A stretch of DNA of 64,000 bases from an uncultured Candidatus Saccharibacteria bacterium (lineage in GTDB: Bacteria > Patescibacteriota > Saccharimonadia > Saccharimonadales > Saccharimonadaceae), in contig CAYYYH010000001.1 in NCBI GenBank assembly GCA_964476395.1, forward strand, positions 5,222 through 69,221, written 5' to 3'. Positions 17,392 through 45,945 of this stretch are shown here, in pieces. The notes under the pieces are model-generated. The model saw only the letters and a list, made by a program, of their open reading frames with translations. It did no database searches and was not told the DNA's origin. The translations under genes were made by a program, and so were the position numbers. Position 1 is the first letter of the stretch. The number at the start of each line of letters is the position of its first letter.

Positions 17392-17927
17392 TATTTTTTA
17401 CCAGCCTTTCCTGCCTTACGAAGGATCACTTCGTCGACATACTTAATGCCTTTACCCTTGTAAGGTTCCGGCTTCTTGAGGCTACGAATCTCAGCTGCCA
17501 CTTGACCAACTTTTTGCTTGTCAATTCCTGAAACGGTAATCTCCATTTTGTTGGTAGAAAGCTGTACACCTTCAGGCGCCTTATACTTGACTGGATGTGA
17601 AAACCCAAGCGCCATCTCGATTTCTTGTCCACCACCAGAAAGGCGATAACCTACGCCGTTAATCTCTAGTTTTTTCTCGTAACCTTTAGTTACACCTACA
17701 ACGGCATTATTAATTAGTGCCCGTTGCAAACCGTGCCAAGCACGGGATTTTGGCTCGTCATCCTCACGGGTAACGGTCAAGATGTTGCCATCGATTTTAA
17801 CCTTAGTTTTCGGCTGAACCGGGACGATGAGCTGACCCTTCGGGCCCGCAACAGTAATCTCGCTGTCGCCGACCGTGATTGTCACTCCCGCCGGAATCTC
17901 GATGGGTTGTTTTCCGATACGACTCAT
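17391..17927 (-). CDS. rplF: 50S ribosomal protein uL6
   Basis: MSRIGKQP, GPKG, LGFSHP, PEPYKGKGI. Confidence 0.98.
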   Translation of the reverse strand: MSRIGKQPIEIPAGVTITVGDSEITVAGPKGQLIVPVQPKTKVKIDGNILTVTREDDEPKSRAWHGLQRALINNAVVGVTKGYEKKLEINGVGYRLSGGGQEIEMALGFSHPVKYKAPEGVQLSTNKMEITVSGIDKQKVGQVAAEIRSLKKPEPYKGKGIKYVDEVILRKAGKAGKK

Positions 17928-17958
17928 ATCTTTTCCCTTTTATGTTAATATCCGGACT

Positions 17959-17987
17959 ATTATACCACAGATCACTATAAATGTAAA
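17959..17987 (-). promoter_or_regulatory. Dedicated promoter for rplF-rplR-rpsE-rplO
   Basis: TTTACA(17982-17987)-17-TGG-TATAAT(17959-17964). Confidence 0.8.
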
Positions 17988-18005
17988 TCTATAAATAGCA
18001 AAAAT

Positions 18006-18716
18006 CTATCTATTGTTCAAAATCTTATTAGGATTTGTCACTAGTAGTTGCTTCAGCTCGCCGTCACTATAGTATTTATTTAGTTTTCTCTTTGCCAAAA
18101 CTAGATAATCGCTCCTACTGCAATGGTGAATATCACTGCCAAAAGTGAAGATCATCTTGTCTTTTGCCATCCGTCGCACCAACTTTTTGGCTTCGCGACC
18201 GTACTTGCCTACTACACTACCCATATTGCACTGCAGCAACACTCCCATATCAAACAGATTTTTCGCCACTTCATAATCTTCCTGAATAATCGTATATCTT
18301 TCTGGGTGTGCCAATATCACCTTGTAGCCATAATCCATCAATTCTCGCAAAAAATCATCATAATTTGGCCATTTCTCATCCAAAGGTAATTCCACCAACA
18401 AATACTTACTACCCGCCATCGTCGAAATCTTGCCTCGCTTGATTAAATCAATCATCTCTCTGTCAATATATATTTCATTGCCCAAAAACAGGTTAATCTT
18501 GATGTTTTCTAGCGCCAATCTATCTTTAAGCTCATTCAAAATCCGCACGTTTTCAAGACGTGGTGACATATAAATTGATTCGTTCACATAATGAGGCGTT
18601 GCGATGATATCGGTCACGCCCTGCCTCATCAATTCTTTAATAATATTTATACTGTCTTCAAATGTTTTTGCCCCATCGTCTATGCCCGGCAAGATATGCG
18701 CGTGCACATCAATCAT
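18006..18716 (-). CDS. CpsB/Wzb-type PHP phosphotyrosine phosphatase
   Basis: Start likely 18716; DVHAH, ATPH, GNE, HPER, GSDIH metal-binding motifs. Confidence 0.92.
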   Translation of the reverse strand: MIDVHAHILPGIDDGAKTFEDSINIIKELMRQGVTDIIATPHYVNESIYMSPRLENVRILNELKDRLALENIKINLFLGNEIYIDREMIDLIKRGKISTMAGSKYLLVELPLDEKWPNYDDFLRELMDYGYKVILAHPERYTIIQEDYEVAKNLFDMGVLLQCNMGSVVGKYGREAKKLVRRMAKDKMIFTFGSDIHHCSRSDYLVLAKRKLNKYYSDGELKQLLVTNPNKILNNR

Positions 18717-18717
18717 T

Positions 18718-20076
18718 CTACTTGGAACTACCATAATAATAATTATTATAATACTTTGAAGCTTTTCGGTTCACCATATTAAATACAACTCCAGCCACCT
18801 TAGCACCTACCTTTTCAAGCGAGTCCTTTGCAGTAATCAAATCAGCTTTGGTAGTATTTCCATCCTTTACTACTATTAACGTTTCATCCATCAAGCTAGA
18901 CAAAATCACCGAATCAGCAAGCCCACCTACCGGCGCCCCATCAAAGATGATCAAATCATAATAACCGCACAAAGCCTTAATCAAACGCTTGTTTTTCTTA
19001 GAAGCAAGCAACTCGCTTGGATTTGGTGGATACGTTCCACAAGTAATAATATCTAAGTTTTTGATCTTAGTAGAACGAATGTATTTGCCGAGGCTTCTTA
19101 AATCACTTGTCAAGAGGTTTGATAAACCACCAGTGTTTGCAATATCAAACAACTTGTGCAACCTGCCCCTTCGTAAATCACAGTCAATGAGCAGCACCTT
19201 TTTGTCTGCCTGAGCAAACGAAATCGCAAGATTAGCCGACACAAAGCTCTTGCCCTCGCTTGCATTGGTACTAGTTACTAAAATCGTCCTCAAGTCTTTA
19301 TCTACGGCCGTGAATTGCAAATTCGTTCTAAGACTCTTAATATTTTCACTTACTATTGCCTTTGGCATTTTCTCCGCGATCAACTCGCCACTAGCCTTCC
19401 TACTTTTAACATCGCCCTTCAAAATCTGCCCAGTCACCGGCAAACCGATTATTTTTTCTACATCATCATTGTGCTTAACGGTATCATCGAGATAAAATCT
19501 AAGGAAGGCAAAGCCAGTCACCGCTAGCACCGCAATCGCTACTGCTAATACCATATCACGCGTCAAAGTATTATTCGCCGGGTTTTCGGGTGCCACTGCC
19601 ACAGAAAGTTGAGTAACATTTTCAATCTTGTAAATATCAATCACCTCAGCAGAAAACACTTTTGCAATTTCGTTTGCTATCGTGGCTGCCAACTTAGCAT
19701 TTGGATCCTTTACAGTAATACTAAGTATCGAAGTATCATTTACTGGCTTAATCGTTAAACTCTTGCTTAATTCTTTCACGCCGACGTGAAGGCCTAAGCT
19801 CTCAATTACCTTTTTTAAAACTAATTCGCTTTTGGCAATTTCGCTATACGTAGTCGCAAGTTTTTGGCTAGCATTAATATCATTAAGCGAAGCCGCTGTG
19901 CCATCAGTCATATCAGATTTTGCAATAACTACTGTAGTCTGCGCCTGATAAATCGGCTGCTTTATCATACTGTCATACACGAAGACTCCGCCTACAACCA
20001 AGACGGTCAAAATTATAAAAGCCAGAATATAACGTTTTAAATAGCTAAAAAAATCTTTTATATTTATTTCATCCAT
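18718..20076 (-). CDS. Fused CpsC-CpsD (Wzz/Wzc-type) chain-length regulator and tyrosine autokinase
   Basis: Two TMs, Walker A EGKS, LLIDCDLRR, Walker B IIFDGAP, C-terminal Tyr cluster YYNNYYYG. Confidence 0.92.
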   Translation of the reverse strand: MDEINIKDFFSYLKRYILAFIILTVLVVGGVFVYDSMIKQPIYQAQTTVVIAKSDMTDGTAASLNDINASQKLATTYSEIAKSELVLKKVIESLGLHVGVKELSKSLTIKPVNDTSILSITVKDPNAKLAATIANEIAKVFSAEVIDIYKIENVTQLSVAVAPENPANNTLTRDMVLAVAIAVLAVTGFAFLRFYLDDTVKHNDDVEKIIGLPVTGQILKGDVKSRKASGELIAEKMPKAIVSENIKSLRTNLQFTAVDKDLRTILVTSTNASEGKSFVSANLAISFAQADKKVLLIDCDLRRGRLHKLFDIANTGGLSNLLTSDLRSLGKYIRSTKIKNLDIITCGTYPPNPSELLASKKNKRLIKALCGYYDLIIFDGAPVGGLADSVILSSLMDETLIVVKDGNTTKADLITAKDSLEKVGAKVAGVVFNMVNRKASKYYNNYYYGSSK

Positions 20077-20136
20077 AATAACTCCTGCCCATCATTATAA
20101 CATAAGCATCTTAATTGTAAACAATTATTAAAACTA

Positions 20137-21612
20137 TTATTCATCCTCAATTGTCATATAACTATTTATTTTGTCTTTTGCTTCCTGCATTGACTCATCA
20201 AACGGCACCATCACATAAAGTGGTTCGTCCGCACCCATGCTATAAGTTGGTTCCATCAATCCATATCCATCAAGCCCAATTGATTCAATTTGCCATTTTG
20301 TTAAATCATCTAACTGCATTTGGATAAATGCCGCAATATCATCACGACTTAGGGTAGTTTCAAATGAATCCGCCGCAATACTTAAAATAGTAGGTAACTT
20401 CAAAAGGTAATCTCGAGAAGTAGATAGTTTGTTGATTATACTAGTAAGAACTTGCTGCTGGTTCTCACCCCGACGTCTATCTCCTCTATTGTAGGATTTT
20501 CTCTCACGTGCAAACCTTAAAGCACAATCACCATCTACAGTCTGTGTACCTACCACATAATAACAAACTTTTGATTCACCCTTATCTTCTCCTCTTGCTA
20601 TTACGCTAAAATGCATTGCTTTGTCTGAATAGATTTCTATCCCATCTAGCTCATCCACAACATCAACCACTGTTTCAAAACTCACCTTAATAGTATGATC
20701 TATCTTAATATCAAGAAAATCTTCGATCGTAGTTTTGCTCATATTGATTCCATACAATCCCGAATGTGACAATTTGTCCTTCAGGCCAGTAGTACCACGT
20801 AGTTGTACATAAGTATCGCGCGGGATCGATAACAATAGTATCTTTCTTTGTTTAGGATTTACCACCGCAATAATATTCACGTCCGTACGCGCTACGGTTT
20901 TTAATCCGCTCCTCGAATCGCTGCCAGAAATATAAACCATGAAAGGTTCTTCGGTTAAATTCTTCTCCGATATGCCTACACCTTCAGCCACTAATTCAAT
21001 TTCAAAAGTACCTATTACTCGCGTATCGTCTAAAACATCTGCCTCTTCCTTGGCCATTTCCAGCCGATCCGTTTCTAATACTATTGCATTTACTACATTG
21101 TTCTTTAGTACATCTGCCATAATATTTACATCATCATAAAACTCAGTTTTTACGCTTACAATCTCTTGCAAATGCTGTTCTGCTTCGGCCACCATATTAT
21201 CGATCTTAAGAAATCCTACATACTTTTGGTTTAACTGTTCAAGCTCGTTTATGTCACTTTCATTCATCACGATGACACTGTATTCTTTCATTTCCGGCTT
21301 TTGCTCAGTAATTCTATTCAAAAAATCATTAAATGCATCAGTAAAACGCAGGGCAAAACATGCTCCAATAATACATACCACCGCCAAAATCGTACAAATG
21401 ATTCTACCAGTAAGTGACGCTTTGTTTTTGATTGCCAGTACTACTAAATTTAATACAAATAGTAAAAGCAAAACTACAGCCACTATTATTATAATCCAAT
21501 TAGCAACAATGCCAGTATTCACTAATGAAAAAACTAATAGCACCGACGTCACTAATTGTACGGCTACCAAAATTGCGCCAATTACCCGCCAAATCAGAGT
21601 CCTTTTTTCCAT
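20137..21612 (-). CDS. LCP-family (CpsA-like) glycopolymer transferase
   Basis: Three N-terminal TMs, GSDSR, RTDVNI, SIPRDTYV, ARER, RGENQQ. Confidence 0.92.
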   Translation of the reverse strand: MEKRTLIWRVIGAILVAVQLVTSVLLVFSLVNTGIVANWIIIIVAVVLLLLFVLNLVVLAIKNKASLTGRIICTILAVVCIIGACFALRFTDAFNDFLNRITEQKPEMKEYSVIVMNESDINELEQLNQKYVGFLKIDNMVAEAEQHLQEIVSVKTEFYDDVNIMADVLKNNVVNAIVLETDRLEMAKEEADVLDDTRVIGTFEIELVAEGVGISEKNLTEEPFMVYISGSDSRSGLKTVARTDVNIIAVVNPKQRKILLLSIPRDTYVQLRGTTGLKDKLSHSGLYGINMSKTTIEDFLDIKIDHTIKVSFETVVDVVDELDGIEIYSDKAMHFSVIARGEDKGESKVCYYVVGTQTVDGDCALRFARERKSYNRGDRRRGENQQQVLTSIINKLSTSRDYLLKLPTILSIAADSFETTLSRDDIAAFIQMQLDDLTKWQIESIGLDGYGLMEPTYSMGADEPLYVMVPFDESMQEAKDKINSYMTIEDE

Positions 21613-21630
21613 CAAACTCCTTCCTTATTA

Positions 21631-22815
21631 TTAATCCCGCGCAAACAAATCACGCGTATAGACGATATCCGCCACATCACGAAGTTGATCTTCTAAGCGA
21701 TTTGCGAGAATAAGATCGCTACGTTCTGCAAAACTGTTAAAATCGTTTTCGACTTCAAATCCAGCAATTTTTTTCTCAGAGAGCGTTGGCTCGTAGATTA
21801 TTACTTCAATTCCCTCACCGCGAATATATTTAATAATATCCTGAATCGCAGCCGAACGGAAATTGTCTGAGCCACTTTTCATAGTTAGCCTGTACACTCC
21901 GACCGTCTTTGGCTTGCGTTTGCAAACATCCTTTGCAATAAATTCTTTACGAGTTTTATTCGCCTGAACAATAGCTCTAATAATATCCTGAGGCACATTA
22001 CGATAATTTGCAAGCAGTTGCTTCGTATCCTTAGGCAAACAGTATCCGCCATAGCCAAAAGATGGATTATTATAGTGTGCCCCAATACGAGGATCAAGAC
22101 AAACTCCTTCAATAATAGCTTTTGCATCAAGATTTTTAACCTGAGCATAAGTGTCTAGTTCATTGAAATAGGAAACGCGCAACGCAAGATAAGTGTTAGC
22201 AAATAGTTTCACGGCCTCAGCCTCGGTCGGTGGCATAAACAAAACTGGTACATCTTTATTCAGTGATGCTTTTTGCAAAAGTTTCGCGAATGTCTTAGCT
22301 TGCTTAGTCTCGTCACCAACAATAATTCTTGCCGGATAAAGATTATCATACAACGCTTTGCCCTCGCGCAAAAATTCCGGCGAAAAGAAAATGTTTTTAA
22401 TGCCATATTTTTCGCGGACTTTTTCGACATATCCAACCGGGATCGTAGATTTAATAACCGTCGTTATGTTGTCGTCCTTCATTCGAATGACTTTTTCGAT
22501 AATATCTTCAACAGCAGAAGTATCAAAAGTATTACTATCGTCATCGTAATTAGTTGGCGTAGCAATAATTACAAACTCAGCTCCTTTCATGGCGTCTTTA
22601 AAATCAATCGTTCCACGAAGATCTAGTTTTCGTTTTCCGCTTTTCGCTTCATCAAAATATTTTTCAATATATTCATCCTTAATTGGTGAAACAAAATCAT
22701 TGATTTTATCAACCTTTTCCTGATGTATCTCAAGCAAAACTACTTCATTTCTTTGGCTTAACAACGTGGCTAAAGACAAGCCAACATAGCCACCACCCGC
22801 TACAGTTATTTTCAT
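21631..22815 (-). CDS. ugd: UDP-glucose 6-dehydrogenase
   Basis: GGGYVG, FSPEFLREG, YNNPSFGYGGYCLPKD, SDNFR. Confidence 0.96.
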   Translation of the reverse strand: MKITVAGGGYVGLSLATLLSQRNEVVLLEIHQEKVDKINDFVSPIKDEYIEKYFDEAKSGKRKLDLRGTIDFKDAMKGAEFVIIATPTNYDDDSNTFDTSAVEDIIEKVIRMKDDNITTVIKSTIPVGYVEKVREKYGIKNIFFSPEFLREGKALYDNLYPARIIVGDETKQAKTFAKLLQKASLNKDVPVLFMPPTEAEAVKLFANTYLALRVSYFNELDTYAQVKNLDAKAIIEGVCLDPRIGAHYNNPSFGYGGYCLPKDTKQLLANYRNVPQDIIRAIVQANKTRKEFIAKDVCKRKPKTVGVYRLTMKSGSDNFRSAAIQDIIKYIRGEGIEVIIYEPTLSEKKIAGFEVENDFNSFAERSDLILANRLEDQLRDVADIVYTRDLFARD

Positions 22816-22845
22816 TTTATCTCCACTATTAATAACTCAAACTTA

Positions 22846-22874
22846 ATTATAAACTATTATCAAATCTCCGTCAA
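22846..22874 (-). promoter_or_regulatory. Promoter upstream of ugd
   Basis: TTGACG(22869-22874)-17-TATAAT(22846-22851). Confidence 0.75.
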
Positions 22875-22879
22875 CGAGT

Positions 22880-23920
22880 TTAAAAGTAAAATTCTTTGTA
22901 CCACTCGGCAAATTTTCGAAGACCATCACGAAGTGAAGTAGTAGGCTTAAAGCCAAAATCTTTTTCTAGCGCGCTGGTATCCGCATAAGTCACCGGCACA
23001 TCACCAGGCTGCATTGGCACGAGTTCCTTATGTGCTTCAAAATCATAATCTTCCGGTAACACTCCAGCCCGAATTAATTCTTCTTGCAAAATCTGCACGA
23101 AATCTAGCAAATTCTCCGGGCTCGAATTGCCTATATTATATACAGCATATGGTGCCAAAGGCAAACCGTCCTCACCGTCCTTTTTTTCCGGCGCCTTCGC
23201 CATCACTCGCATCACGCCCTCCACGATGTCGTCAATGTAAGTAAAATCTCGCTTACAATTTCCGAAATTAAATATCTGAATCTTCTCACCTTTAATTAAC
23301 TTATTGGTGAAGCCAAAATACGCCATGTCCGGACGCCCCGCCGGCCCATAGACCGTGAAGAAACGCAAACCCGTAGACGGTATATTATATAGTTTTGAAT
23401 ATGCATGCGCGAGAAGCTCATTGGATTTCTTGGTCGCCGCATATAGACTCACCGGATTATCCACCTTGTCTTCCGTATCAAACGGCACCTTCTTATTTCC
23501 ACCATATACGGACGATGACGAAGCATACACTAAATGCTCCACCGGATAGTGCCGACACGCTTCCAATATGTTATAAAAGCCAATCAAATTCGCCTCAATA
23601 TACGCATCCGGATGATCAATTGAATACCGCACCCCAGCCTGCGCCGCCAGATTCACCACAATCTCCGGATGATATTTTTCAAACAACTTGTTTACGGCTT
23701 CCTTATCCGCTAAATTTCCTTTAATGAATGCAAAATTCTTGTATTGCTCCAGATCCTTCAACCGATATTCCTTCAATTTCACATCATAGTAATCATTTAC
23801 ACTATCAAATCCAATCACCTTAGCCTTCGGGTTTTCTTCGCACACTCGCTTCACGAGCGCCCATCCGATAAACCCCGCCGCCCCCGTAATCAAAATTGTT
23901 TTACCATTAAAATCACTCAT
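22880..23920 (-). CDS. NAD-dependent epimerase, UDP-glucuronate 4-epimerase-like
   Basis: TGAAGFIG, LAAQAGVRYS, ASSSSVYG, YAATKK, GRPDMAYF, MQPGDV. Confidence 0.92.
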   Translation of the reverse strand: MSDFNGKTILITGAAGFIGWALVKRVCEENPKAKVIGFDSVNDYYDVKLKEYRLKDLEQYKNFAFIKGNLADKEAVNKLFEKYHPEIVVNLAAQAGVRYSIDHPDAYIEANLIGFYNILEACRHYPVEHLVYASSSSVYGGNKKVPFDTEDKVDNPVSLYAATKKSNELLAHAYSKLYNIPSTGLRFFTVYGPAGRPDMAYFGFTNKLIKGEKIQIFNFGNCKRDFTYIDDIVEGVMRVMAKAPEKKDGEDGLPLAPYAVYNIGNSSPENLLDFVQILQEELIRAGVLPEDYDFEAHKELVPMQPGDVPVTYADTSALEKDFGFKPTTSLRDGLRKFAEWYKEFYF

Positions 23921-23929
23921 ATTATTTCC

Positions 23930-24226
23930 TTATGATTCTTCCATACCTTCTTGGGTATACTCTGATACAATCTTTACCACCTGCTGAATAGTCGGGGAAC
24001 AGTTCTTGAAACTAACTTTTTCAAAGAACAAATCCCCAAATTCACGCATCGGTCCGACTATTAATGCATGAATGAACGATTGCGTTGCTCCAATCATGCC
24101 TTCAAAATCAAGAATTACCTCCTCACCATCAACTAACGCCGGCATAATTTGTTTAATCCTAATCCGCCTAGCTGTGTCTTTATTCTCCCCAAATTCCCCC
24201 GCCATTTTCGCCAATTTTATAATCAT
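23930..24226 (-). CDS. STAS-like (DUF4325-like) small protein
   Basis: VILDFEGM...SFIHAL pattern; overlaps stop of upstream HATPase gene. Confidence 0.75.
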   Translation of the reverse strand: MIIKLAKMAGEFGENKDTARRIRIKQIMPALVDGEEVILDFEGMIGATQSFIHALIVGPMREFGDLFFEKVSFKNCSPTIQQVVKIVSEYTQEGMEES

Positions 24227-25188
24227 ACGAACTTCACCTCCTTATATTTAGCTTTTTTGCGCTCGCGTATAGCTTTGCTATATGATACTTTAATTCTTTC
24301 CAAAATTTCGCTAAATGTTTCCGTATCAGTTAAAGTCAAATCAAGACCTATCAAAGTACCTCCAAAATTTGGCAAATCGTCATAAACTGCACATTTATCG
24401 GCAAATGGGTTCTCGTTTAACCGCGGACTATATTTTACTCTTTTATCAAATTTGTGCAATTTATAGGCTGCACTCCCGCTATATACTAGGAAGTAATTCC
24501 GGGTTGTTTTCACAATAGATTTAACGATATATAATCCCGCCCCGGCATTATCACCAGTACCACCCCTATATGCCGTTCCAGAAACGCCCGGCATCAATGC
24601 AAGTCGTATCGCATCAAGATCATCGACCGGATTATGGTATTTCTCAAGACTAGCCCTAAGACCGACTCCGGTATCACATATACCCACACTCAACTTATTT
24701 TTCTCGGCCGTATATTGCACAGCGACGAAGGCGCCATTCTGCGCGTTTGAATGTTCAATCACATTCCGAATCAATTCCCCCAAGACGTATTTAACAGTTT
24801 CAGACTTTTCCGGAGAAAGATGCAAAATCGGATGTAAATCCGCGATAAACCGCGACTGCTCCTGCTCGGTCTTAAGCTGTGTTATAGGGATGAAACGCCC
24901 CGTCTCCTCATGCTGATTATACTCGATCGGGCAATTACTCGATGAATAATCATATAAACCCATCCTGTCTAAATACATCGCCGCCCGAGGCACCCCAATA
25001 TCAATCGTTGTATTTTCCTTCCCGACCTCAGACGCCAAAGCCGCCGCAAAAGCCAAGCAAACGGGATGAACATATATCCAACTTTTCTCCGCGCAAATTT
25101 CAAGTTTACTACTATCAGACAGGTCATTAGTCCTCAAAAAATAGTTAATACTCTTTAGCTGGTCCACATTCGAAAACGATATTTTCAT
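24223..25188 (-). CDS. GHKL/HATPase_c-domain protein (anti-sigma/kinase-like)
   Basis: ELIRNVIEHS (N box), CDTGVG (G1), NAGAGLY (G2). Confidence 0.8.
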   Translation of the reverse strand: MKISFSNVDQLKSINYFLRTNDLSDSSKLEICAEKSWIYVHPVCLAFAAALASEVGKENTTIDIGVPRAAMYLDRMGLYDYSSSNCPIEYNQHEETGRFIPITQLKTEQEQSRFIADLHPILHLSPEKSETVKYVLGELIRNVIEHSNAQNGAFVAVQYTAEKNKLSVGICDTGVGLRASLEKYHNPVDDLDAIRLALMPGVSGTAYRGGTGDNAGAGLYIVKSIVKTTRNYFLVYSGSAAYKLHKFDKRVKYSPRLNENPFADKCAVYDDLPNFGGTLIGLDLTLTDTETFSEILERIKVSYSKAIRERKKAKYKEVKFV

Positions 25189-25194
25189 ATCTTC

Positions 25195-25223
25195 ATTATA
25201 ACGGTTAGACGTATTTTTGTCAA
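25195..25223 (-). promoter_or_regulatory. Consensus promoter of the HATPase-STAS pair
   Basis: TTGACA(25218-25223)-17-TATAAT(25195-25200), ATG 6 nt downstream. Confidence 0.85.
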
Positions 25224-25313
25224 TATACGCTTAACCGTAGATTAACAGGGGTAAAAAAGTTATAATTCTGCGGTTAGACGTATTTTCCCAAAAACACGCT
25301 TAACAGTAGATTA
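25202..25313. repeat. Two 43-bp imperfect direct repeats, each partly palindromic
   Basis: 25202-25244 and 25271-25313, 36/43 identical; CGGTTA-GA-CGTAT...ATACG-CT-TAACCG dyad. Confidence 0.85.
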
Positions 25314-25352
25314 TTGTCTCACTCTCCCCACGACGTTTTCACTAACCACCTC

Positions 25353-25381
25353 TTGACTTTTTCAACCACTCGCGCTATAAT
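25353..25381 (+). promoter_or_regulatory. Promoter with no downstream ORF (drives candidate sRNA)
   Basis: TTGACT-17-TATAAT. Confidence 0.8.
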
Positions 25382-25387
25382 AAAACC

Positions 25388-25833: not shown

Positions 25834-25845
25834 AGAACTCCTTAA

Positions 25846-25923: not shown

Positions 25924-25934
25924 TTTATGTCCGC

Positions 25935-27807: not shown

Positions 27808-27824
27808 ATCACATATTATACCAC

Positions 27825-37733: not shown

Positions 37734-38506
37734 ACTCTCCTCCTCACCGCATTAAAGCAATACACTATGAAACACTCACAGCTCTTACAGAATCCCAGCC
37801 CTTCCACATTTCGATACAGATTCCAAGTTCGCTTCAAAGCCGTCAGTTTGTTCGAAGATAACGACCCAGCACTTCGCCGATAAAACGACAACACCTCATT
37901 TAGCCCATAGGCATAATCAATCTTCTTTAGCACTTTCCACCACGTCGCCGTGTCTTGCCCACGCCTCACATCCGGCATTAAGACATCATCCACATCCAAT
38001 TTCTCCATGTCAAACATCACCGTCGAAGTCCAAATCGTCGTATTCTTTAGCGCTTGTTTATACGAAATTCGTGCTGGCACCGAAACCACTTTACCATTTG
38101 GTCGTCCAGAAGCATCCGCAAACTCATACCCCGTAAATGAAAAAGTGCAGTCGTTTTCCCGCATAAAGTCCACCTGCCGCGCCAATTTATCATGCGCCCA
38201 CAAATCATCCGCATCCAAAAACGCCAAAAACCTACCTCGCGCCGCCTTAATCCCGGCATTCCGAGCTTTCGCTGCACCACTATTCCTGTCTAGCTTTATT
38301 AAGCGAATTCTTTTATCCCCAGTTTGCTTCAATGTTTCATTGATTATCGCCACCGTATTATCATCAGATTTATCGTCAACAATAATCCATTCCCAATTAC
38401 GATAGCTCTGCTCGCAAACAGTTTTAATCGTTTCAGCAAAAAAAGCTTCACCATTATGCACTGGCGTCACAATACTAACTAGCGGCTCATTTTCTATTTT
38501 TCCCAT
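37730..38506 (-). CDS. GT2 glycosyltransferase (TuaG-like)
   Basis: VSIVTPVHN, VDDKSDD, GAAKARN, FLDADD, GQDTATW. Confidence 0.92.
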   Translation of the reverse strand: MGKIENEPLVSIVTPVHNGEAFFAETIKTVCEQSYRNWEWIIVDDKSDDNTVAIINETLKQTGDKRIRLIKLDRNSGAAKARNAGIKAARGRFLAFLDADDLWAHDKLARQVDFMRENDCTFSFTGYEFADASGRPNGKVVSVPARISYKQALKNTTIWTSTVMFDMEKLDVDDVLMPDVRRGQDTATWWKVLKKIDYAYGLNEVLSFYRRSAGSLSSNKLTALKRTWNLYRNVEGLGFCKSCECFIVYCFNAVRRRV

Positions 38507-39221
38507 TTTCCCTCTTCAAATCCTTTATATCATTATGAACACGCGCCTTACCAGCATCAGCCTCTTTACGGGACAATACTGTCTTCACCGTCAATAGCAC
38601 CACTTTCACATCCTGCCCAAGCGAATAGTTTCGCACATATTCCAAATCATACCCAATCTTCTCAAACACCGATAGCCCGTTCCGGCCTTTCGCCGCCGCG
38701 AGCCCCGTAATCCCCGGTCTCACCTTCGCCCGTTCTCGTTCCCTCTCGTTCATATTCTCCCAGTATTCTGGCACCCACGGGCGCGGCCCAATGAATGACA
38801 TTTGCCCCTTAAATACATTTATAAGCTGTGGCAACTCATCCACCGAAGATTTACGCAATTTCTCGCCCAGCCTCGTGTATTTATCATCGCACGACGTATC
38901 TCTCATATCATTATCCGCCACCATACTACGGAATTTCAACATTTCAAACTCTTTGCCCTTCTTGCCAGTGCGTTTTTGCCGGAAAAAAACTGGCCCAGGA
39001 CTATCAATCTTTATCGCTAGTGCCACTACTACAAACAAAGGCGACAACCCCACTAGTAATACTCCAGAAGTCACCAAGTCAAACAATCTTTTCAACGCAC
39101 CAAAAGAAACCAGCCTCATAATCTTAGCCTTACTTGGCACTACTACTGGCATTGTCATATAAACCGGCTTCACTAGCACCGCCTCGCTCCCCACGGCACT
39201 ACTCACAGTATTTTTTGGCAT
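38487..39221 (-). CDS. Priming sugar-phosphate transferase (Bac_transf family)
   Basis: KRLFD, DSPGPVFFRQ, KFRSM, DELPQLINV, MSFIGPRP, PGITGLA. Confidence 0.93.
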   Translation of the reverse strand: MPKNTVSSAVGSEAVLVKPVYMTMPVVVPSKAKIMRLVSFGALKRLFDLVTSGVLLVGLSPLFVVVALAIKIDSPGPVFFRQKRTGKKGKEFEMLKFRSMVADNDMRDTSCDDKYTRLGEKLRKSSVDELPQLINVFKGQMSFIGPRPWVPEYWENMNERERERAKVRPGITGLAAAKGRNGLSVFEKIGYDLEYVRNYSLGQDVKVVLLTVKTVLSRKEADAGKARVHNDIKDLKRENGKNRK

Positions 39222-39255
39222 AATTCTCCACGATAATATAAATTATCCTGTTTAT

Positions 39256-39284
39256 ATAATATACAATACTCCCCCAAAAGTCAA
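39256..39284 (-). promoter_or_regulatory. Probable cps operon promoter
   Basis: TTGACT(39279-39284)-17-TATTAT(39256-39261). Confidence 0.6.
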
Positions 39285-39424
39285 ACACGCTTATGCCACA
39301 CTTTTGCAAACCAAATTCCCCGAAAATTGCCATTTTTGGGGATTTTAAGCCCATTTTACAGATATTTCGCAGAATCTCACCCCCGTCAAACAGGGGTGGG
39401 GCACCATATATAATAATATAGTTA

Positions 39425-42400
39425 CTATTTCTGCCTTCTCGCCACAATCGTAGCGCCAGCCAATACGAATACCGACACCACACCCATCACCACCGAAGCA
39501 CTAGCTACAGCCCCACCATTAGCGCTACCCCGCTCCGTCGTAAACGCACCCGTCTCCGGCGTCACCGGCGGCTCGATAATACCACCACAACCGCCAATCA
39601 AACACACATCTGTAATCGTATTATTAATCACATAGTCATAGCCATTGTGCTCATACGAAGTATCATAGTTCTCCACCACTGTCTCATTGATCGTGTACTC
39701 AATTTCCTCACCATCTTTATACTTACGCAACCCTTCAAATACATACTCCCAATTGCCATCCTCATCCGGCTCAATTTCAACCGTGTCAATCACTTCACTG
39801 TCCGCCAAAAGTTCCACGACGATACTAGCTGGACGCGTGTTGCCAAGATTATCTTCGTCATCCCATTTCTTCGTCACCACCAACTGGCCATCGTTATCCG
39901 GATCGTCATCATCGTTCTTAATCAATTCCGGCTCGTGGTAGTTTACAAACGTCATCGAATACTGATCACCGCTAACCCACACCATCTCATAGTCATCAGA
40001 CGCTAGAACCTCTTCCGCAATATATTCAATCACTTCAGCGTTCTCGTCCGCTACTGGCAAATCCGTAAATTCATACATCCAAACATCATAGCCCTTCAGC
40101 TCTTCTGGCAAATCTTCCTCAGCCACCAAATTACTATCCGACAAACCTTCATTCTCTACTACTTCGTCACCAACTAGCAAGTTCACCATCAAAGTACCCG
40201 GCCTCTTACCATCATTATCATACTCATCATCCCAAATCTTCACCACGGTATATTTAGTTTTGTTCACTTCATATTCATTCTTCATCTTAAATACCGCATC
40301 CTGCCCCTTCGTCACCGAAATTTCCTCATCGCTAGTTGCTTTCAAGGTAAAGTTCTCAATCTCCGCATTCTTTTCTGTAACCGTATATTTACCAGTCGGG
40401 ACCTTTCCTTTCAGTTCACAAGTAATCACATCGCCAACAGTCTTACAACCCTCACTTACCTTCAAAGTCACTTCCGCAAAGTCTTCTGGACCACTTACTA
40501 CAAACTCCAAATCTTTCAATACCGTCGCCGATACACCCGTCACCGTCTTTTCAATCCTAAACGACTTAGCCAAGCTCCGCTTGTTCAGGACCGTCAGAGT
40601 CAAACTATCCTCATCCCACACAAATGCCCCATCCGCTTCGTCGCTAAACACACAGGTCTTAGTATAAGTATTCACTAGCGTATCCACATTTACACCGGAT
40701 AACACACTCGTGCAAGTTACCGTAATCGTCGCCGAACCCGATACGATATCATAGCCCTCTAGAGCCTCCTTCTCGGCGATTTGATATTCAAAGTTTTCCT
40801 CCTTTTTGTTCTTAGTTAGCGGCACCGTAATCTTAATCTCACCATTCTTATCCGTCGTATAATCCTTGTCACCAACCGTAAACACTACACCCTGCAATGC
40901 CTTTCCATCGCCATCGTACTTCTTGATCGAAAACTCATCTTCACCATCATATTCAATCTCCTCAGTTGACTTTGTCCAGGTATTCGTCACTTCATGTTTG
41001 TCATTATCTACACTCTTAGTCCAGCTACCCTCAACTGCACCGTCATTTGATAATACAACTATCGCACTTTCATCTTCACCAAATGTAGTTTCACCAAGCT
41101 TAGATTCTTGCACCGAATATATAATCGGCTCACCGTCTTCATTTAGATACAAATTCTTAAAAGTATGTTTCCACTCATTCGCTGCCGAAACCGTAACTGG
41201 CTCACCTAGTCTCGAACCGTTAGCATAAAGCTCAATCGTAATCGTAGTCGGTCTAGCCAATTCATTACCTTCGCCGTTCCAAATCTTTTGTACAGTCAAT
41301 TCACCAGTTTCATCATATAGCGCCGGCTCATGGAAGTTAGTAACCACACCATTCTCAATCGTTACAGCATAATCATCATCACCAGCAAATTCAGTACATT
41401 TAATACTACTGCCACTACCACTGCAAGTAGACGCTTCTACAATCTCGTAAGTAATAGCCTCACCATTCACAGTCTTTGTCGGCAAATGTGTGAAACTATA
41501 ATCATCCTTATTCTCAAGCGCTAATTTTTGGTACGCCACATACTTACCACTATTATTCTTTACTGCCACATAATAGTTCGCATAATTTTTTCGTAAGCCA
41601 TCACGGTTCTCGCCATCGTTCCAAACTTTAGCAGCAGTCACATCAATATATGGAATCGCCTCATTTTTTACCGTATATGTACGACTTTCGGTATCATAAG
41701 TATACCCAGTCACATTCGTAGCCGAAATCGAAAAGACATACTCAAATATGTTATTCAAATTTACCAAATCGACTTGGTTCAGTTTTTTAATCTTAGTGAT
41801 ATTAACACTTGCCTCGCTTGAAATAGCTTGGTAATCCGTAGGAGCCTCGGTCTCTTTAAGCGAATACTCACCGGCGTCAAGTTTATCAAAAGTTGCTTCA
41901 CCGTTTTCATCGGTGGTTTTAGAAATCGTCGTGCCATTGTTCAGTTTAAGTTCAAATACGGCACCTTCAAGCGGCTCTTCAGTTGAAGCATCAATCTTTT
42001 TAATGCTAAAGCTAGTTAGCCCACTGACAGATTCAGTAGCAGGTGTCCAAGTGTTTCGAAGGACATATTCGTCGAAAGTCATTACTTTCCATCTACCTAC
42101 GACGGCATGCTGACCATTGTTTTCCTCAGCATCGTATTCAAAGAAAGCATCCTGCTGCTCATTGTAAGTAGCACCCTCAATCACGCTTTCTTTGATCGAA
42201 TAGACGATCTCCACGCCATTATCGTATTTTGGTAAATCCGTAAATGAGGCCTTCCAGTTATTGTCAGCATTAGCGTCCTCAGTTCTGCCAGTAGAAACTT
42301 CATTTCCATCAGCACCCTTCTTAAACAATTCAACCGTAATACTACCAGGAAGAGTCTTTCCGCTTAATACATTCCCGTCCGCATCATACCAAGTCTTCTC

Positions 42401-44857
42401 AAAATCAACCCTAGTTTTCTCGTCAAGAAACTTATTAGTTACAGTAACAGACGAGGCTGTGTTACCAGAGACTACATAGTAGTTATCAGCCGTACTAGTG
42501 GATGGAACCAAATCCCCATCGCTACCATATTTTTCTTCATAAGTAATTACAGGATTCGCATCATACCCGGCCTTAACCTCTTCTTCGACATAGTATTCCA
42601 CGCCGGCATCTACGTTGACGATACGGATAGTATCACCAAGATAAAGAGTCTCAGTCAAAGTTCCTTCGCCGTAAATGTGATTACTACGACTAAATCTGAA
42701 ATTGCCTTCCGCATCATACACTTTGTGCGATTCGTATTCTGGATTCTTCTCGCCATAGTAAATACGGTAATCATAGCTGTAAGGATTTCCATCGGCATCA
42801 ATGAGATGTGCAGTTATTTCGAACGAGTCATTAGTGTCGACTGACTTACCATCTTTATCGACTACCTTCTTTTCAATATTAATACCACCCTTCAATGTGT
42901 TCGTAGCAGAAAGCGTATCAAGATTTTCAATCCTTTCAATACCGGTAATATTACCATCAGCATCTCGACTGAAGAAGACATCTTTAACCGCATTACCGAT
43001 TTTCATTGGATGATGGATGTAAGAAGTGAGTTCGAAGTGATTATTGATACCTTTTTCCTCAAAGGTATACTCATGACCGGCCTCAAGAATAGCATACGTT
43101 ACACCACCATAGGATACCTGAGGTGCATTAGGATCGTAGGCAGCGCTGTTTTCTGCAACCATAAGACCAGGAGCCACACTAATGCCAGGGTCAATCTTCC
43201 AATCACTAGTTTCAGTAAGAAGAATTTCGTCCGTCAAATTATCGCCGACTTTAATCTCATATGGTTTACCGTCCATAAGAAGATTAAGCGTCACTTCACC
43301 ACCAACTTCTTCGCGTTGAGTTGGGTCAAGAGAATCTTCCCATTTCTTTTCAAGAGCTAATTTAGCTTCAGAAAGATTAACAGGTTCAGGATTATTAATG
43401 TCAACAGTAGTCGGGTCAGAAGTAACAGATGTAGGAACACCATCTACGGTAGTAGTGGTAATTGTCGAATAAGTGAGAGTAGGAAAGTCGGTATTAGTTT
43501 TAAGTGCATATTTATCGCCATTTTGCTTAATTTGAGATTTCTGAGAATCGGTAAGGTCGTCATAAGATATGATGCCATTATTTAAATCAGCGACCAAATC
43601 GAGCGAAGATTGCTTTGGCCAGACCACAAACGTTATAGTATAAGTTACGCCATTTTCGAGAATCAAATCATCAAGATCCCAATCCACCTCATTATCCGCA
43701 TTAATGGTTGCTTCAGGAGCATTGGTCCATTCCTCACCGAGGCCATTATTAGCAGTTGAGCTATAGGAGCCACCAGAGCGATAATACTTAAGGCCAGTTA
43801 CTTTACCACTAGCTGAAGCTTTAACACTAGAAGCCGTCATTGCCGTGATTCCATCTTCCAATTCAACGTCTGTATAGCCCACGCCAGTAGTAATGTTATG
43901 TACAATCTGGTTTAGCGCATTAATAAGGGCAGTGGTACTACTTGCGTCGGTATAGTATTCAGCATAATCAGAGCTTAGAGAACTGCTATAAGTTCCAGTT
44001 CCAGTGTATGCATATTGGACTAAACTTTTGAGAAAAGCGGAAGGAGTCTGCGAATAACCCGAGCTGTTGCTTGAACTACCCCAAGTAAAGAGACCGTAGA
44101 AAGTATACCCAGCCGAAACAATGGCTCTCGCATCATCGCTAGCATAACCCCATTCTTCACCATAATTCATGTTGACATTATGGTTATTCCGAGCACGAGT
44201 TTCGTCGGTCGTTGGCTCACCGTCGGTTAGAAAAATAACATAAACATCCTCATCCGACTGTGCTTGCTTTTTTGCATCGGCAAGATTTTTCGCTATCTGC
44301 AGAGCACCCTCCCAGTTAGTACCAGTCGAAGTCGTTAGACCATTAATGGTATTTTTCAAAGTAGTTCCATTCGTAGTCCATGTTTGAGCAGTATGCCCTT
44401 CAGTACCAAAGTTTACTACGGCAACTTCGATAATATCAGACCTCACAGAATCTCCAGGAACATTTTGAGCAAGGAGTTTGTCAACGATGCCGTCGTCTTT
44501 GGTTAAGGCATCTTTCTCTGCGTCAATCCTTGAAATGGACTGACCAGAAGCAGTAGTTTCACCACTACTACTATTCATCGAGTTAGAAGTATCAACGACA
44601 AGAATAACGTTAGCCTTCGTAGCACTCGTAGTCTCGCTACTTTCCCTAGAACCAGTTACGCTAAGAGCAATGGTATAGGTTCCGTCACCATTAGGTATAA
44701 GCGTTTTACTATGTGCCGGTGCATCACTCGAAGTATTAGTGTTCGTAGCTCCCGGTTCGTCGTCTGCAGCATAGGTATCAAAAAAGGTCATTGGTACCGA
44801 ACCAAAAACCATCACCACAGCTGCGAAAATATTTAGTATTCTTCGCTTTAAACTCAT
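39425..44857 (-). CDS. vWA-tipped CnaB/SpaA-repeat surface adhesin with sortase-type sorting signal (~1,810 aa)
   Basis: Start likely ATG 44857 (SD GAAGGAG); signal peptide; MIDAS DTSNS, TNWEGAL, FLTDGEP; CnaB repeats KVWND/KIWDD/KKWDD; KKIDA..EPLEGAVF; C-terminal TPETG, hydrophobic segment, RRQK. Confidence 0.9.
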   Translation of the reverse strand: MSLKRRILNIFAAVVMVFGSVPMTFFDTYAADDEPGATNTNTSSDAPAHSKTLIPNGDGTYTIALSVTGSRESSETTSATKANVILVVDTSNSMNSSSGETTASGQSISRIDAEKDALTKDDGIVDKLLAQNVPGDSVRSDIIEVAVVNFGTEGHTAQTWTTNGTTLKNTINGLTTSTGTNWEGALQIAKNLADAKKQAQSDEDVYVIFLTDGEPTTDETRARNNHNVNMNYGEEWGYASDDARAIVSAGYTFYGLFTWGSSSNSSGYSQTPSAFLKSLVQYAYTGTGTYSSSLSSDYAEYYTDASSTTALINALNQIVHNITTGVGYTDVELEDGITAMTASSVKASASGKVTGLKYYRSGGSYSSTANNGLGEEWTNAPEATINADNEVDWDLDDLILENGVTYTITFVVWPKQSSLDLVADLNNGIISYDDLTDSQKSQIKQNGDKYALKTNTDFPTLTYSTITTTTVDGVPTSVTSDPTTVDINNPEPVNLSEAKLALEKKWEDSLDPTQREEVGGEVTLNLLMDGKPYEIKVGDNLTDEILLTETSDWKIDPGISVAPGLMVAENSAAYDPNAPQVSYGGVTYAILEAGHEYTFEEKGINNHFELTSYIHHPMKIGNAVKDVFFSRDADGNITGIERIENLDTLSATNTLKGGINIEKKVVDKDGKSVDTNDSFEITAHLIDADGNPYSYDYRIYYGEKNPEYESHKVYDAEGNFRFSRSNHIYGEGTLTETLYLGDTIRIVNVDAGVEYYVEEEVKAGYDANPVITYEEKYGSDGDLVPSTSTADNYYVVSGNTASSVTVTNKFLDEKTRVDFEKTWYDADGNVLSGKTLPGSITVELFKKGADGNEVSTGRTEDANADNNWKASFTDLPKYDNGVEIVYSIKESVIEGATYNEQQDAFFEYDAEENNGQHAVVGRWKVMTFDEYVLRNTWTPATESVSGLTSFSIKKIDASTEEPLEGAVFELKLNNGTTISKTTDENGEATFDKLDAGEYSLKETEAPTDYQAISSEASVNITKIKKLNQVDLVNLNNIFEYVFSISATNVTGYTYDTESRTYTVKNEAIPYIDVTAAKVWNDGENRDGLRKNYANYYVAVKNNSGKYVAYQKLALENKDDYSFTHLPTKTVNGEAITYEIVEASTCSGSGSSIKCTEFAGDDDYAVTIENGVVTNFHEPALYDETGELTVQKIWNGEGNELARPTTITIELYANGSRLGEPVTVSAANEWKHTFKNLYLNEDGEPIIYSVQESKLGETTFGEDESAIVVLSNDGAVEGSWTKSVDNDKHEVTNTWTKSTEEIEYDGEDEFSIKKYDGDGKALQGVVFTVGDKDYTTDKNGEIKITVPLTKNKKEENFEYQIAEKEALEGYDIVSGSATITVTCTSVLSGVNVDTLVNTYTKTCVFSDEADGAFVWDEDSLTLTVLNKRSLAKSFRIEKTVTGVSATVLKDLEFVVSGPEDFAEVTLKVSEGCKTVGDVITCELKGKVPTGKYTVTEKNAEIENFTLKATSDEEISVTKGQDAVFKMKNEYEVNKTKYTVVKIWDDEYDNDGKRPGTLMVNLLVGDEVVENEGLSDSNLVAEEDLPEELKGYDVWMYEFTDLPVADENAEVIEYIAEEVLASDDYEMVWVSGDQYSMTFVNYHEPELIKNDDDDPDNDGQLVVTKKWDDEDNLGNTRPASIVVELLADSEVIDTVEIEPDEDGNWEYVFEGLRKYKDGEEIEYTINETVVENYDTSYEHNGYDYVINNTITDVCLIGGCGGIIEPPVTPETGAFTTERGSANGGAVASASVVMGVVSVFVLAGATIVARRQK

Positions 44858-45029
44858 TTTGTACTCCTTCGCTCTAGATTTAATGCTAGAATTGCCGTCA
44901 TTATACCACACCTGTCAAACAGGGGCAACGATAAGCGTCTTCAAAGACAACAAAAACAACTCCACTTTAACCAAGAGCATCATCAAAATAACCACAAATT
45001 TTTCAAAACACCCCGAAGCAACTTTCCCC

Positions 45030-45058
45030 TTGACAATTCCACTTCCAACCTGTATCAT
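45030..45058 (+). promoter_or_regulatory. Promoter driving candidate antisense sRNA
   Basis: TTGACA-17-TATCAT with no plus-strand ORF downstream. Confidence 0.75.
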
Positions 45059-45064
45059 TAAATC

Positions 45065-45136
45065 ATAAGGAATATAGCGTTAGGAACTATATTCTAGTTG
45101 GTTGGTTCTAACCGGTCTTACCGGTTAGAATTTTTT
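45065..45136 (+). ncRNA. Candidate ~70-nt two-hairpin antisense RNA
   Basis: GAATATAG-9-CTATATTC hairpin; terminator TTCTAACCGG-TCTTA-CCGGTTAGAA-T6; overlaps 3' end of 29-aa ORF. Confidence 0.6.
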
Positions 45137-45207
45137 CTTCGGCTTCCTCGCCGTACTGAGAGTTTTACAGTAATCCGAATCCGCCATAACGAAAACTTTA
45201 TACTCAT
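45118..45207 (-). CDS. 29-aa basic peptide, candidate type I toxin (below ORF-track cutoff)
   Basis: MSIKFSLWRIRITVKLSVRRGSRRKNSNR*; AAAGGAGG just upstream (short spacing); stop lies in the loop of the sRNA terminator. Confidence 0.5.
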   Translation of the reverse strand: MSIKFSLWRIRITVKLSVRRGSRRKNSNR

Positions 45208-45491
45208 CTTCCTCCTTTCCGAACTTCTGGCATACCTAACATAGCTGTTTAATGAAGCTCCACACCCGCACGAATGCTCTATGGCACATTCCTACTGTTT
45301 TCAAACCCACTAAACTCCGAAGCCAACCCGACATTATCTAAACACACCTTAAAATCTTAATCAACCCCTCTTCAACTAAAATTGAAGCATAAGAATTGTG
45401 CAATCTGTTATTTCACCATTAATCCTTCCGCTTAACTAAACCATAAAAACTTTTTCAAAAAGCACGAGAAGCTTTCTGTAGACTCGAAAAC

Positions 45492-45540
45492 AAAAAAGCA
45501 GGGGGGCAGAATTTCTTCTACCAGGCCCTGCTATTTTTTT
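45492..45540 (-). terminator. Terminator after rpsH
   Basis: AGCAGGG/CCCTGCT stem extended by GGTAGAA-GAAA-TTCTGCC, followed by T6 on minus strand. Confidence 0.8.
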
Positions 45541-45543
45541 AAC

Positions 45544-45945
45544 TTACCAAACCTTCACCAAGATCTCACCACCCAACCGATTCTTCTTCGCTTCGCGGCC
45601 AGTCATTAAGCCCTTCGAGGTAGATACAATGATCATACCGCGTCCAGATTTAATCGTCGGCAAATCGTCCGCACTAGAATACACGCGACGACCCGGCTTA
45701 GACACCTTAGAAATCTCGTTGATTTTTGCAATAGCACCCGGTTCGTTGATGACGACACGGAGCATTCCACGTGGCGAACCATCGACAATTTCAAAGCTAG
45801 AAACGTAACCGTTCTTGACTAAAACTTCTACTACACCAGCCTTCAGCTTAGAAGTCGGGACGAGGATTTCATTTTTGCCAACTAGTACCGCATTGCGAAT
45901 TCGCGTGATGAGGTCTGCAATTTGATCAGTTGATTGTATAGACAT
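45544..45945 (-). CDS. rpsH: 30S ribosomal protein uS8
   Basis: [32 protein letters not shown]. Confidence 0.98.

Follow-up and report, generated by a model that had tools for sequence, protein, structure and literature searches.

The window analysed here, a stretch of 64,000 nucleotides (nt) from an uncultured Candidatus Saccharibacteria bacterium (GenBank assembly GCA_964476395.1, contig CAYYYH010000001.1, positions 5,222 to 69,221 of the forward strand), harbors a spc operon that is interrupted between rpsH and rplF, the genes for ribosomal proteins S8 and L6. A preliminary description, made from the sequence alone, had placed about 27.6 kb of DNA exactly between these two genes. The Pfam identities of both genes and the distance of 27,616 bp from the rpsH stop codon to the rplF start codon, both genes being located on the minus strand, bear this out (Table 1).

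Folding of positions 45484–45543 directly downstream of rpsH revealed a 46-nt hairpin (about 45492–45537) with a folding energy of -23.6 kcal/mol, a stability not reached by any of 200 shuffled sequences (z = -5.5). A pattern scanner had missed this predicted terminator owing to its narrow loop rule. Together with the predicted promoter upstream of rplF (scan score 11/12), it agrees with the earlier proposal that both halves of the operon have been re-wired. Thus, with 27,616 bp and these predicted signals in between, rpsH and rplF are neither adjacent nor likely to be co-transcribed as in a typical spc operon, and rplO is not followed by secY. In E. coli, S8-mediated translational feedback is known to reach the distal spc genes. 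The split would uncouple rplF–rplO from feedback of this type, which raises a testable question on the balance of ribosomal proteins in reduced genomes.

Table 1. Features of the rpsH–rplF interval and its borders, listed in the direction of the ribosomal-protein genes (positions in the window; TM, transmembrane; LCP, LytR-CpsA-Psr)
Feature	Position	Strand	Basis and remarks
Upstream row rplC-rplD-rplW-rplB-rpsS-rplV-rpsC-rplP-rpsQ-rplN-rplX-rplE-rpsN-rpsH	52031–45544	-	Tightly packed
rpsH (ribosomal protein S8)	45544–45945	-	Pfam Ribosomal_S8, E 6e-38; last gene of the rplC...rpsH unit
Predicted intrinsic terminator after rpsH stop codon	45486–45537	-	Nested hairpin, then U6
rpsH-proximal non-coding stretch with short basic-peptide open reading frame (about 45118–45207) and hairpin	44980–45440	-	No Rfam family
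Promoter-like site of the adhesin gene, TTGCCC-17-TATAAT with TG	44928–44900	-	Promoter scan
Surface adhesin, 1810 aa	39425–44857	-	Pfam, sorting signal; signal peptide, VWA, SpaA, 5 Cna_B, TPETG, TM segment, basic tail
Capsule/cell-wall polysaccharide locus, variable part	29434–39221	-	Pfam and TM count
Initiating sugar transferase	38487–39221	-	Bac_transf, E 2e-60; first gene of the variable part
Candidate Wzy, 447 aa	33391–34734	-	About 9 predicted TM segments, no Pfam match
Probable Wzx flippase	29976–31502	-	Polysacc_synt, 28.1 bits (cut-off 28.2); 12 predicted TM segments
Hexapeptide acetyltransferase	29434–29973	-	End of the variable part
Defence islet nested in the capsule locus	23930–29192	mixed	Pfam, PADLOC
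AbiD/Abi_2	28296–29192	+	Pfam; PADLOC AbiD, E 8e-83
DUF4145 protein	27232–27885		Pfam; defence islet
413-aa protein, 3 TM segments	25935–27176		No Pfam match; defence islet
PemK/MazF toxin	25438–25833		Pfam; defence islet
HATPase_c protein	24223–25188		Pfam; defence islet
DUF4325/STAS-like protein, HATPase partner	23930–24226		Pfam; defence islet
Capsule locus, conserved part adjoining rplF	18006–23920	-	Pfam
NAD-dependent epimerase	22880–23920	-	Pfam; conserved part
UDP-glucose 6-dehydrogenase (ugd)	21631–22815	-	Pfam; conserved part
LCP ligase	20137–21615	-	LytR_cpsA_psr, E 8e-34
Wzz and CpsD-type tyrosine kinase	18718–20076	-	Wzz and P-loop kinase domain
CpsB phosphatase	18006–18734	-	CpsB_CapC, E 6e-61; ends 78 nt before rplF
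Predicted rplF promoter, TTTACA-17-TATAAT with extended -10 TG	17987–17959	-	Scan score 11/12; about 35 nt before ATG
rplF (ribosomal protein L6)	17391–17927	-	Pfam Ribosomal_L6, E 8e-36
Downstream unit rplF-rplR-rpsE-rplO	17927–15831	-	Pfam; without rpmD; FKBP gene next, not secY

The interval, referred to as the slot in the following, is built in layers, namely an adhesin gene with its own promoter next to rpsH and a capsule locus with its variable half towards rpsH and its conserved half towards rplF, between which a defence islet is located. The presence of capsule, toxin, and adhesin genes, already proposed in the preliminary description, was confirmed by Pfam matches for the capsule locus, PemK/MazF, and the VWA/SpaA/Cna_B adhesin. 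About 630 nt of non-coding DNA, including a strong hairpin at 45104–45132, separate rpsH from the adhesin promoter. This promoter and the 5' untranslated region (UTR) are also conserved upstream of the adhesin genes of L147, L128, L127, L109, L112, and L021 (such labels denote individual loci of relatives), and the nearest relative of the adhesin itself is a protein of L128 with 75% identity. Its signal peptide was judged by eye from the hydrophobic N-terminus MSLKRRILNIFAAVVMV..., and its C-terminus displays ...PPVTPETG..., a hydrophobic stretch, and finally ARRQK. With this variant of the LPXTG motif, the protein is a predicted sortase substrate. Two PF04203 matches above the cut-off revealed sortase genes in the genome, which are located outside the slot on contigs C11 and C10.

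From the rpsH side, the variable part of the capsule locus encodes the initiating sugar transferase, a glycosyltransferase of family 2 (GT2), a TupA-like ATP-grasp protein, GT1 and GT4 enzymes, the 447-aa protein, a second TupA-like protein, another GT2 enzyme, Wzx, and the acetyltransferase. A sugar transferase, glycosyltransferases, and a flippase are components of a Gram-positive Wzx/Wzy capsule locus, the match of the flippase being marginally below the Pfam cut-off. With a GC content of 0.359 in comparison to 0.42 for the genome, this part falls under the genome's 5th percentile and is the only compositionally odd segment; it is only partly common to relatives, with L104 being the nearest. 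The two paralogous TupA-like genes are located at 32454–33398 and 36855–37733. Low-depth contigs from two sequencing runs (3–6x versus about 55x) join position 32858 to 37236 between these paralogs and may stem from a minority variant, or from a relative without the 4.4 kb in between. The conserved part contains the CpsB, CpsC/D kinase, and LCP module of Gram-positive capsule loci, and its genes adjoin rplF in the same order in 13–19 other species with identities of 52–93%.

The region between the variable genes and the epimerase gene (window 23920–29434) represents a nested second insertion point. In this genome it is occupied by the defence islet, which also revealed weak PADLOC matches to PD-T7-4 and DrmA-N, and apart from MazF none of its genes has a homolog among the 101 other loci of the genus. 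In two other species, loci L121 (10164–10661) and L124 (10775–11215) carry a 166-aa gene at this point that is 98.6% identical between them, versus 93.8% for L6, and L121 additionally harbors a 1102-aa gene between the epimerase gene and ugd. Pfam searches with the 447-aa, 413-aa, and 94-aa open reading frames (ORFs) of the window resulted in no significant match.

Variation of the interval across the genus

The genus comprises Saccharibacteria of the ruminant gut, tiny epibionts of other bacteria. About 100 other species were surveyed for the rpsH–rplF interval or, alternatively, for as much as 19.4 kb of sequence preceding rplF, resulting in a genus set of 102 loci. In the 78 loci that were fully spanned, gap sizes extended from 18 to 27,616 nt (median, 3.0 kb), the window displaying the largest one. 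Nine gaps were shorter than 100 nt, five had 100–300 nt (14 of 78 thus being below 300 nt), and 59 had at least 1 kb. Twelve further loci showed no rpsH within 18–19 kb, and the remainder reach the end of a contig. Eleven of 80 added genus assemblies break inside the gap (L100, L101, L105, L110, L111, L113, L114, L118, L119, L128, and L135), several of them only 100–1300 nt from rplF, which fits strain heterogeneity at the slot. The block of ribosomal-protein markers used for phylogeny and binning of the candidate phyla radiation (CPR) is cut at this site, and such breaks can cost half of the marker set.

As a control, we inspected the remaining 13 gene junctions of the rplC–rpsH block in 49 loci. 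All of them had at most 225 nt, in comparison to 21 nt to 27.6 kb at the rpsH–rplF junction, and the length of the rplC–rpsH block varied only between 6.32 and 6.68 kb. Since these junctions stay closed, rpsH–rplF represents one specific hotspot and not a general decay of the gene row. In outgroup Saccharibacteria, the canonical order rpsJ-rplC...rpsH-rplF...rplO-secY is present with an rpsH–rplF spacing of 4–30 nt. Within the family, the gap was at most 30 nt in 26 of 39 informative genomes from 30 other genera. The nearest genus is open in all three genomes (1.4–4.7 kb) and has a promoter of the same type; apart from it, only a few genera dispersed over the family are open.

In regard to the transcription signals, an extended -10 element (TGnTAnAAT) 36–41 nt before the rplF start was detected in 94 of the 102 genus loci, but in only 2 of 75 loci outside the genus. 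Of the 69 genus loci with at least 100 nt between rpsH and rplF, 67 possess a hairpin plus T-run downstream of rpsH, which varies in sequence among species. Thus, the old part of the locus is the rplF promoter, not the cargo. The short gaps form a graded series, starting with spacers of 18–20 nt that contain only a ribosome binding site, as in the outgroups, followed by those with a promoter only (35–71 nt), those with terminator and promoter but no gene (116–168 nt), those with small ORFs (membrane peptides, rubrerythrin), and finally the islands. From this series, we infer that the internal rplF promoter may have arisen before any cargo and may thereby have made the site safe for insertion; since reversals also occur, this direction is unproven.

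The content of the slot was equally variable. The cargo amounted to 563 ORFs, which were grouped into 291 protein clusters including 202 singletons, so that the same core genes flank differing content throughout the 102 loci. The site thus behaves as the hotspot for surface and defence genes that had been suspected from the window. Sortase substrates are the most common cargo, with at least one (counting proteins of at least 200 aa) in 43 of 102 loci, and in 30 of 59 loaded loci such a gene directly follows rpsH. The C-terminus of 52 cargo proteins of at least 400 aa displays the motif (A/T/V)P(E/D/N)TG followed by a TM segment and a basic tail. Capsule loci rank second, with the core of CpsCD, CpsB, and LCP being present in 19 loci, always adjacent to rplF and with variable enzymes towards rpsH. 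Pfam searches with two widespread cargo families of 613 aa and 1325 aa gave no significant match. A Peptidase_M73 (camelysin/TasA-like) gene was found in some slots (L020:6557–8067) and a weak signal-peptidase S26-like match in others (L135:1510–2508), the species being different. Taken together, these genes are reminiscent of the Bacillus fibre system TasA/SipW and would add a further type of surface cargo.

Instead of such cargo, 11 loci contain housekeeping blocks (rpoBC, rpsB-tsf) at this site. The gap of three species (L007:2026–16030, L123, and L171) consists of leuS, nusG-rplKAJL, rpoB, and rpoC, and a clade comprising six or more species carries rplF behind rpmE, rpsB, and tsf, with rpsH elsewhere. 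Overall, the four-gene module rplF–rplO appears in at least four chromosomal contexts within the genus.

The ribosomal cluster of the window's genome is broken at two further positions, namely rpsJ|rplC and rplO|secY. Upstream of rplC (window 52031–53694), prfA and one 87-aa ORF are located, and rpsJ lies on contig C11. As rpsJ was found upstream of rplC in none of the 45 genus loci with rplC in reach, this break looks fixed. The prfA–rplC spacer itself is strain-variable, another assembly of the same species harboring three extra ORFs (L181:1693–3915). The genes downstream of rplO (window 13067–15831) encode FKBP, a small membrane protein, and exonuclease I. Instead, secY is found on contig C10 (region 11972–29071), where leuS...rplKAJL-rpoB-rpoC immediately precede it and a sortase gene comes next. 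The break between rplO and secY is not genus-wide, since the order rplO-secY-sortase-infA-rpsM is intact in the species represented by L024. Two allele classes of rplD, with about 68% versus 87–90% identity to the window, were detected among otherwise close species, which hints at mosaic ribosomal-protein genes in the genus.

Turnover between sister species and strains

A tree was calculated from 13 ribosomal proteins, both genes flanking the slot being excluded, and gaps below 300 nt were scored as empty. On this tree, at least 7 (45 taxa) to 9 (54 taxa) changes between the empty and loaded states are needed. Supported sister pairs differ accordingly, with gaps of 27.6 kb and 517 nt for the window species and L102, 2.3 kb and 36 nt for L137 and L178, 2.4 kb and 71 nt for L122 and L130, and 6 kb and 53 nt for L120 and L140 compared to L103. 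The gap of L102 aligns with the first 566 nt of the window gap, and the rplF promoter follows immediately; over about 500 nt (314 of 503 positions identical), the rpsH-proximal stretch of the window thus corresponds to the whole 517-nt gap of this sister species. Loci L157 (20 nt) and L165 (116 nt), likewise sisters on the tree and with 98% protein identity, are distinguished by one clean 96-nt indel that represents the terminator-promoter module, indicating that the operon can also re-fuse.

Differences were also identified within two related species. Ten contigs of the L024 species, which come from different samples, encode one and the same S8 protein and have flanks of 97–98% identity. Three alleles occur among them, with lengths of 20 nt, 59 nt (a promoter alone), and 2.08 kb, and these differ across the entire intergenic stretch. 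In the 2.08-kb allele, a gene for a 583-aa sortase substrate with its own promoter is enclosed by two terminators, and rplF has a different promoter and 5'UTR. The 12 kb of flanking sequence contain about 1000 segregating sites, of which only two, including the final base of the rpsH stop codon, display fixed differences between empty and loaded strains. Thus, linkage vanishes right at the borders of the slot, as homologous exchange predicts. In the L021 species, flanks of 96.8% identity enclose adhesin alleles of 2098 and 2041 aa that are 34–64% identical. Based on these sequence comparisons, whole intergenic alleles appear to be exchanged within species by homologous recombination via the ribosomal genes. 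In one strain of the L024 species (L243, 8403–8422), a 39-nt deletion removes the -10 element of rplF and the usual ribosome binding site and leaves a spacer of 20 nt. This may be an allele in which the operon has truly re-fused, or else a variant of the assembly.

With these results, the part of the preliminary description that had proposed a fixed, old split has to be abandoned. The gap varies from 18 nt to 27.6 kb in 78 loci with 14 of them below 300 nt, sister species and conspecific strains differ, and an identical split throughout the clade was not seen, since the content differs among the species of the genus.

Explanations for the open junction

Taken together, rpsH|rplF is probably an insulated permissive junction, the contents of which are exchanged as whole alleles within species and rebuilt over longer times. 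The terminator would close the rplC...rpsH unit and the strong genus-wide promoter would restart rplF-rplR-rpsE-rplO; by this predicted insulation, DNA could be inserted without a polar effect on essential genes. The junction would thus act as a single permissive slot in an otherwise rigid gene row that has been filled, emptied, and refilled many times, mostly with sortase-anchored proteins and capsule loci, sometimes with defence genes, and occasionally with translocated housekeeping blocks. In the proposed sequence of events, the rplF promoter would have preceded the cargo, new cargo would first enter through rare illegitimate events, and whole intergenic alleles would then be swapped within species by crossovers in the conserved ribosomal genes.

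Several observations limit this explanation or weigh against it. Between species, no signal of recombination emerged, as in only 6 of 643 pairs does the cargo exceed the identity of L6 by at least 4 points. Flank DNA is only 70–88% identical between species, which is too divergent for efficient RecA-type exchange. In approximately unbiased (AU) tests, every single-gene tree rejects every other one, leaving no specific signal. S8 was the least concordant gene in correlations of pairwise distances, with no pattern across the slot, and comparison of the window with 25 relatives by per-gene and sliding-window identity revealed no consistent nearest neighbor. Moreover, all sampled contigs of the window's own species carry the same island, and exchange of this very island is therefore inferred rather than seen. 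The promoters and terminators are predictions, the listed metatranscriptome runs containing only 7% of the words and thus stemming from relatives. Furthermore, the housekeeping blocks at the junction show that ordinary chromosomal rearrangement acts here too, and the 11 of 80 added loci that end inside the gap truncate the distribution of gap sizes. Recombinase domains were not found in the relatives' cargo in a screen of the larger protein clusters, which was not exhaustive.

The halves of the operon might have been joined to unrelated DNA by binning or assembly, as the genome is a metagenome assembly of 23 contigs (677 kb, 99% complete) and many related assemblies break at the same site. However, 99% of the words sampled from the rpsH junction are present in four gut-metagenome runs, and the Logan contigs of these runs tile positions 26100–46099 with zero mismatches and even depth. 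Single contigs cross the junction and bridge rpsH into the adhesin gene (X1, 44301–45874; X3, 34880–45958, reaching from the glycosyltransferase genes into rpsH). Across many samples and with two assemblers, the identical S8 protein was detected on about 20 contigs, always followed by the adhesin and capsule genes, and the identical L6 protein on 15 contigs, preceded by cpsB-cpsCD-LCP wherever the contig reaches upstream. With read-derived contigs and independent assemblies displaying the same neighbors on either side, and the same junction types in more than 50 other species, the joins are genuine and the probability of a chimera is practically nil. For an integrated mobile element, i.e., a genomic island, integrative and conjugative element, or prophage remnant that entered the rpsH–rplF spacer by site-specific recombination, one could argue with AbiD and MazF as typical island cargo and with the low GC content of the variable capsule part. 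It is nevertheless extremely unlikely, since Pfam searches of the cargo ORFs of at least 80 aa detected no integrase, transposase, or relaxase domain and tRNA and Rfam scans of the window found nothing, in line with the lack of an integrase or tRNA target remarked on before. In a search for att-like border repeats, the longest shared word was the 11-nt promoter core TGTGGTATAAT, which is within the expectation from shuffled sequences (maximum 14), and no copies of the border sequences were found elsewhere in the genome. Furthermore, the tetranucleotide profile of the island is mostly inside the range of the genome, and its content is a mosaic of adhesin and capsule loci, each of which occurs at the same site in other species.

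An ancient, fixed split with vertically inherited content would account for the genus-wide promoter, and the capsule genes adjoining rplF are about as similar between species as ribosomal proteins, which is compatible with long residence in one clade. Against it stand the 14 short gaps among the 78 spanned loci, the 202 singleton clusters with content unlike in almost every species, and the differences between sister species and conspecific strains, which make it very unlikely. For the genus overall this reading is refuted; at most, it might apply to the capsule module of a sub-clade. A neutral breakpoint has more in its favor. In this case, rpsH|rplF would be one of several decay sites of the supercluster where any DNA lands, and the bias towards surface genes would mirror a small accessory genome, with no dedicated role or exchange mechanism. 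The two further breaks in the same genome, which left rpsJ on C11 and secY on C10 behind rpoC, the rpsJ|rplC break in all 45 genus loci examined, and the housekeeping blocks (leuS...rpoBC, rpsB-tsf) at the site in 11 loci fit this assumption, and insertion followed by disconnection is given as a general process under relaxed selection in the passages of Brandis 2021 considered here (PMC8046335). However, turnover at rpsH|rplF is recurrent and extends to strains of one species, in contrast to the rpsJ|rplC break, which looks fixed. Likewise, sortase substrates are present in 43 of 102 loci and in first position after rpsH in 30 of 59 loaded loci, and adhesin alleles of 34–64% identity within flanks of 97% identity suggest diversifying replacement, so that we regard a purely neutral breakpoint as rather unlikely.

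A further-reaching form of the insulated junction can be put forward only tentatively. The slot might be the genus's main locus for variation of the outer surface, with adhesin and capsule alleles that are kept polymorphic by selection and shuffled between strains by natural transformation, the extremely conserved and undeletable ribosomal genes serving as recombination anchors and the terminator-promoter pair as the enabling element. If true, such variation would probably serve attachment to the host and escape from phages or host defences. The host range of epibionts is thought to depend on the surface, and the slot would provide one address for adhesin or capsule variants in more than 60 species.

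Comparison with known systems

The ribosomal supercluster is a textbook example of frozen gene order, yet one junction of spc has been opened across a whole genus. As intermediate states from promoter only to full separation survive in living species, the breakage of an essential operon becomes directly observable. A full-text literature search resulted in no published description of an rpsH|rplF island in Saccharibacteria, and only the framework of Brandis 2021 was relevant. In the part of this work considered here, insertion and subsequent disconnection in the ribosomal supercluster are described for events between operons in Gammaproteobacteria and Bacilli (PMC8046335). As in these events, in which a few genes enter between transcription units and some descendants later separate the units fully, both stages were seen in our study, namely small cargo as well as rplF relocated behind rpsB-tsf, and rpoBC also takes part. 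Unlike the events in those passages, the cut lies inside spc according to the operon definitions of E. coli and Bacillus and not between operons, it is accompanied by a new promoter and terminator, and it concerns at least 100 species of a CPR genus with turnover within species.

In regard to its architecture, the adhesin of the window resembles pilus tip adhesins of the RrgA/GBS104 type, displaying a signal peptide, VWA, a SpaA/Cna_B stalk, and a sorting signal in a genome that encodes sortases, and a protein of a relative also matches GBS104-like_Ig. Unlike this type, the sorting motif is (T/A)P(E/D/N)TG and not LPXTG, and neither a pilin backbone gene nor a pilus-type sortase gene adjoins.

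Hotspots flanked by core genes, many of them without mobile-element genes, were reportedly described by Oliveira, Touchon and Rocha in 2017, and their turnover is said to be attributed to homologous recombination in the flanks. As in such hotspots, the same pair of core genes brackets differing accessory content. Unlike them, the slot is located midway in a highly conserved operon, and an insulating terminator-promoter pair would have evolved beforehand.

Similarities also exist to Gram-positive Wzx/Wzy capsule loci in general and to the cps locus of Streptococcus pneumoniae in particular, which is located between dexB and aliA and combines a conserved module of CpsB, CpsC/D, and LCP with a variable part of glycosyltransferases, Wzx, and Wzy, whole alleles being replaced through homology of the flanks. 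Unlike the flanks of cps, those of the slot are essential ribosomal-protein genes of one ancestral operon; the conserved module is found at the 3' end, the capsule is predicted here from its genes, and the slot may also hold adhesins, defence genes, or nothing. Nevertheless, both loci have a fixed address between conserved genes, and in both a conserved module lies beside a variable part that is serotype-like in its composition.

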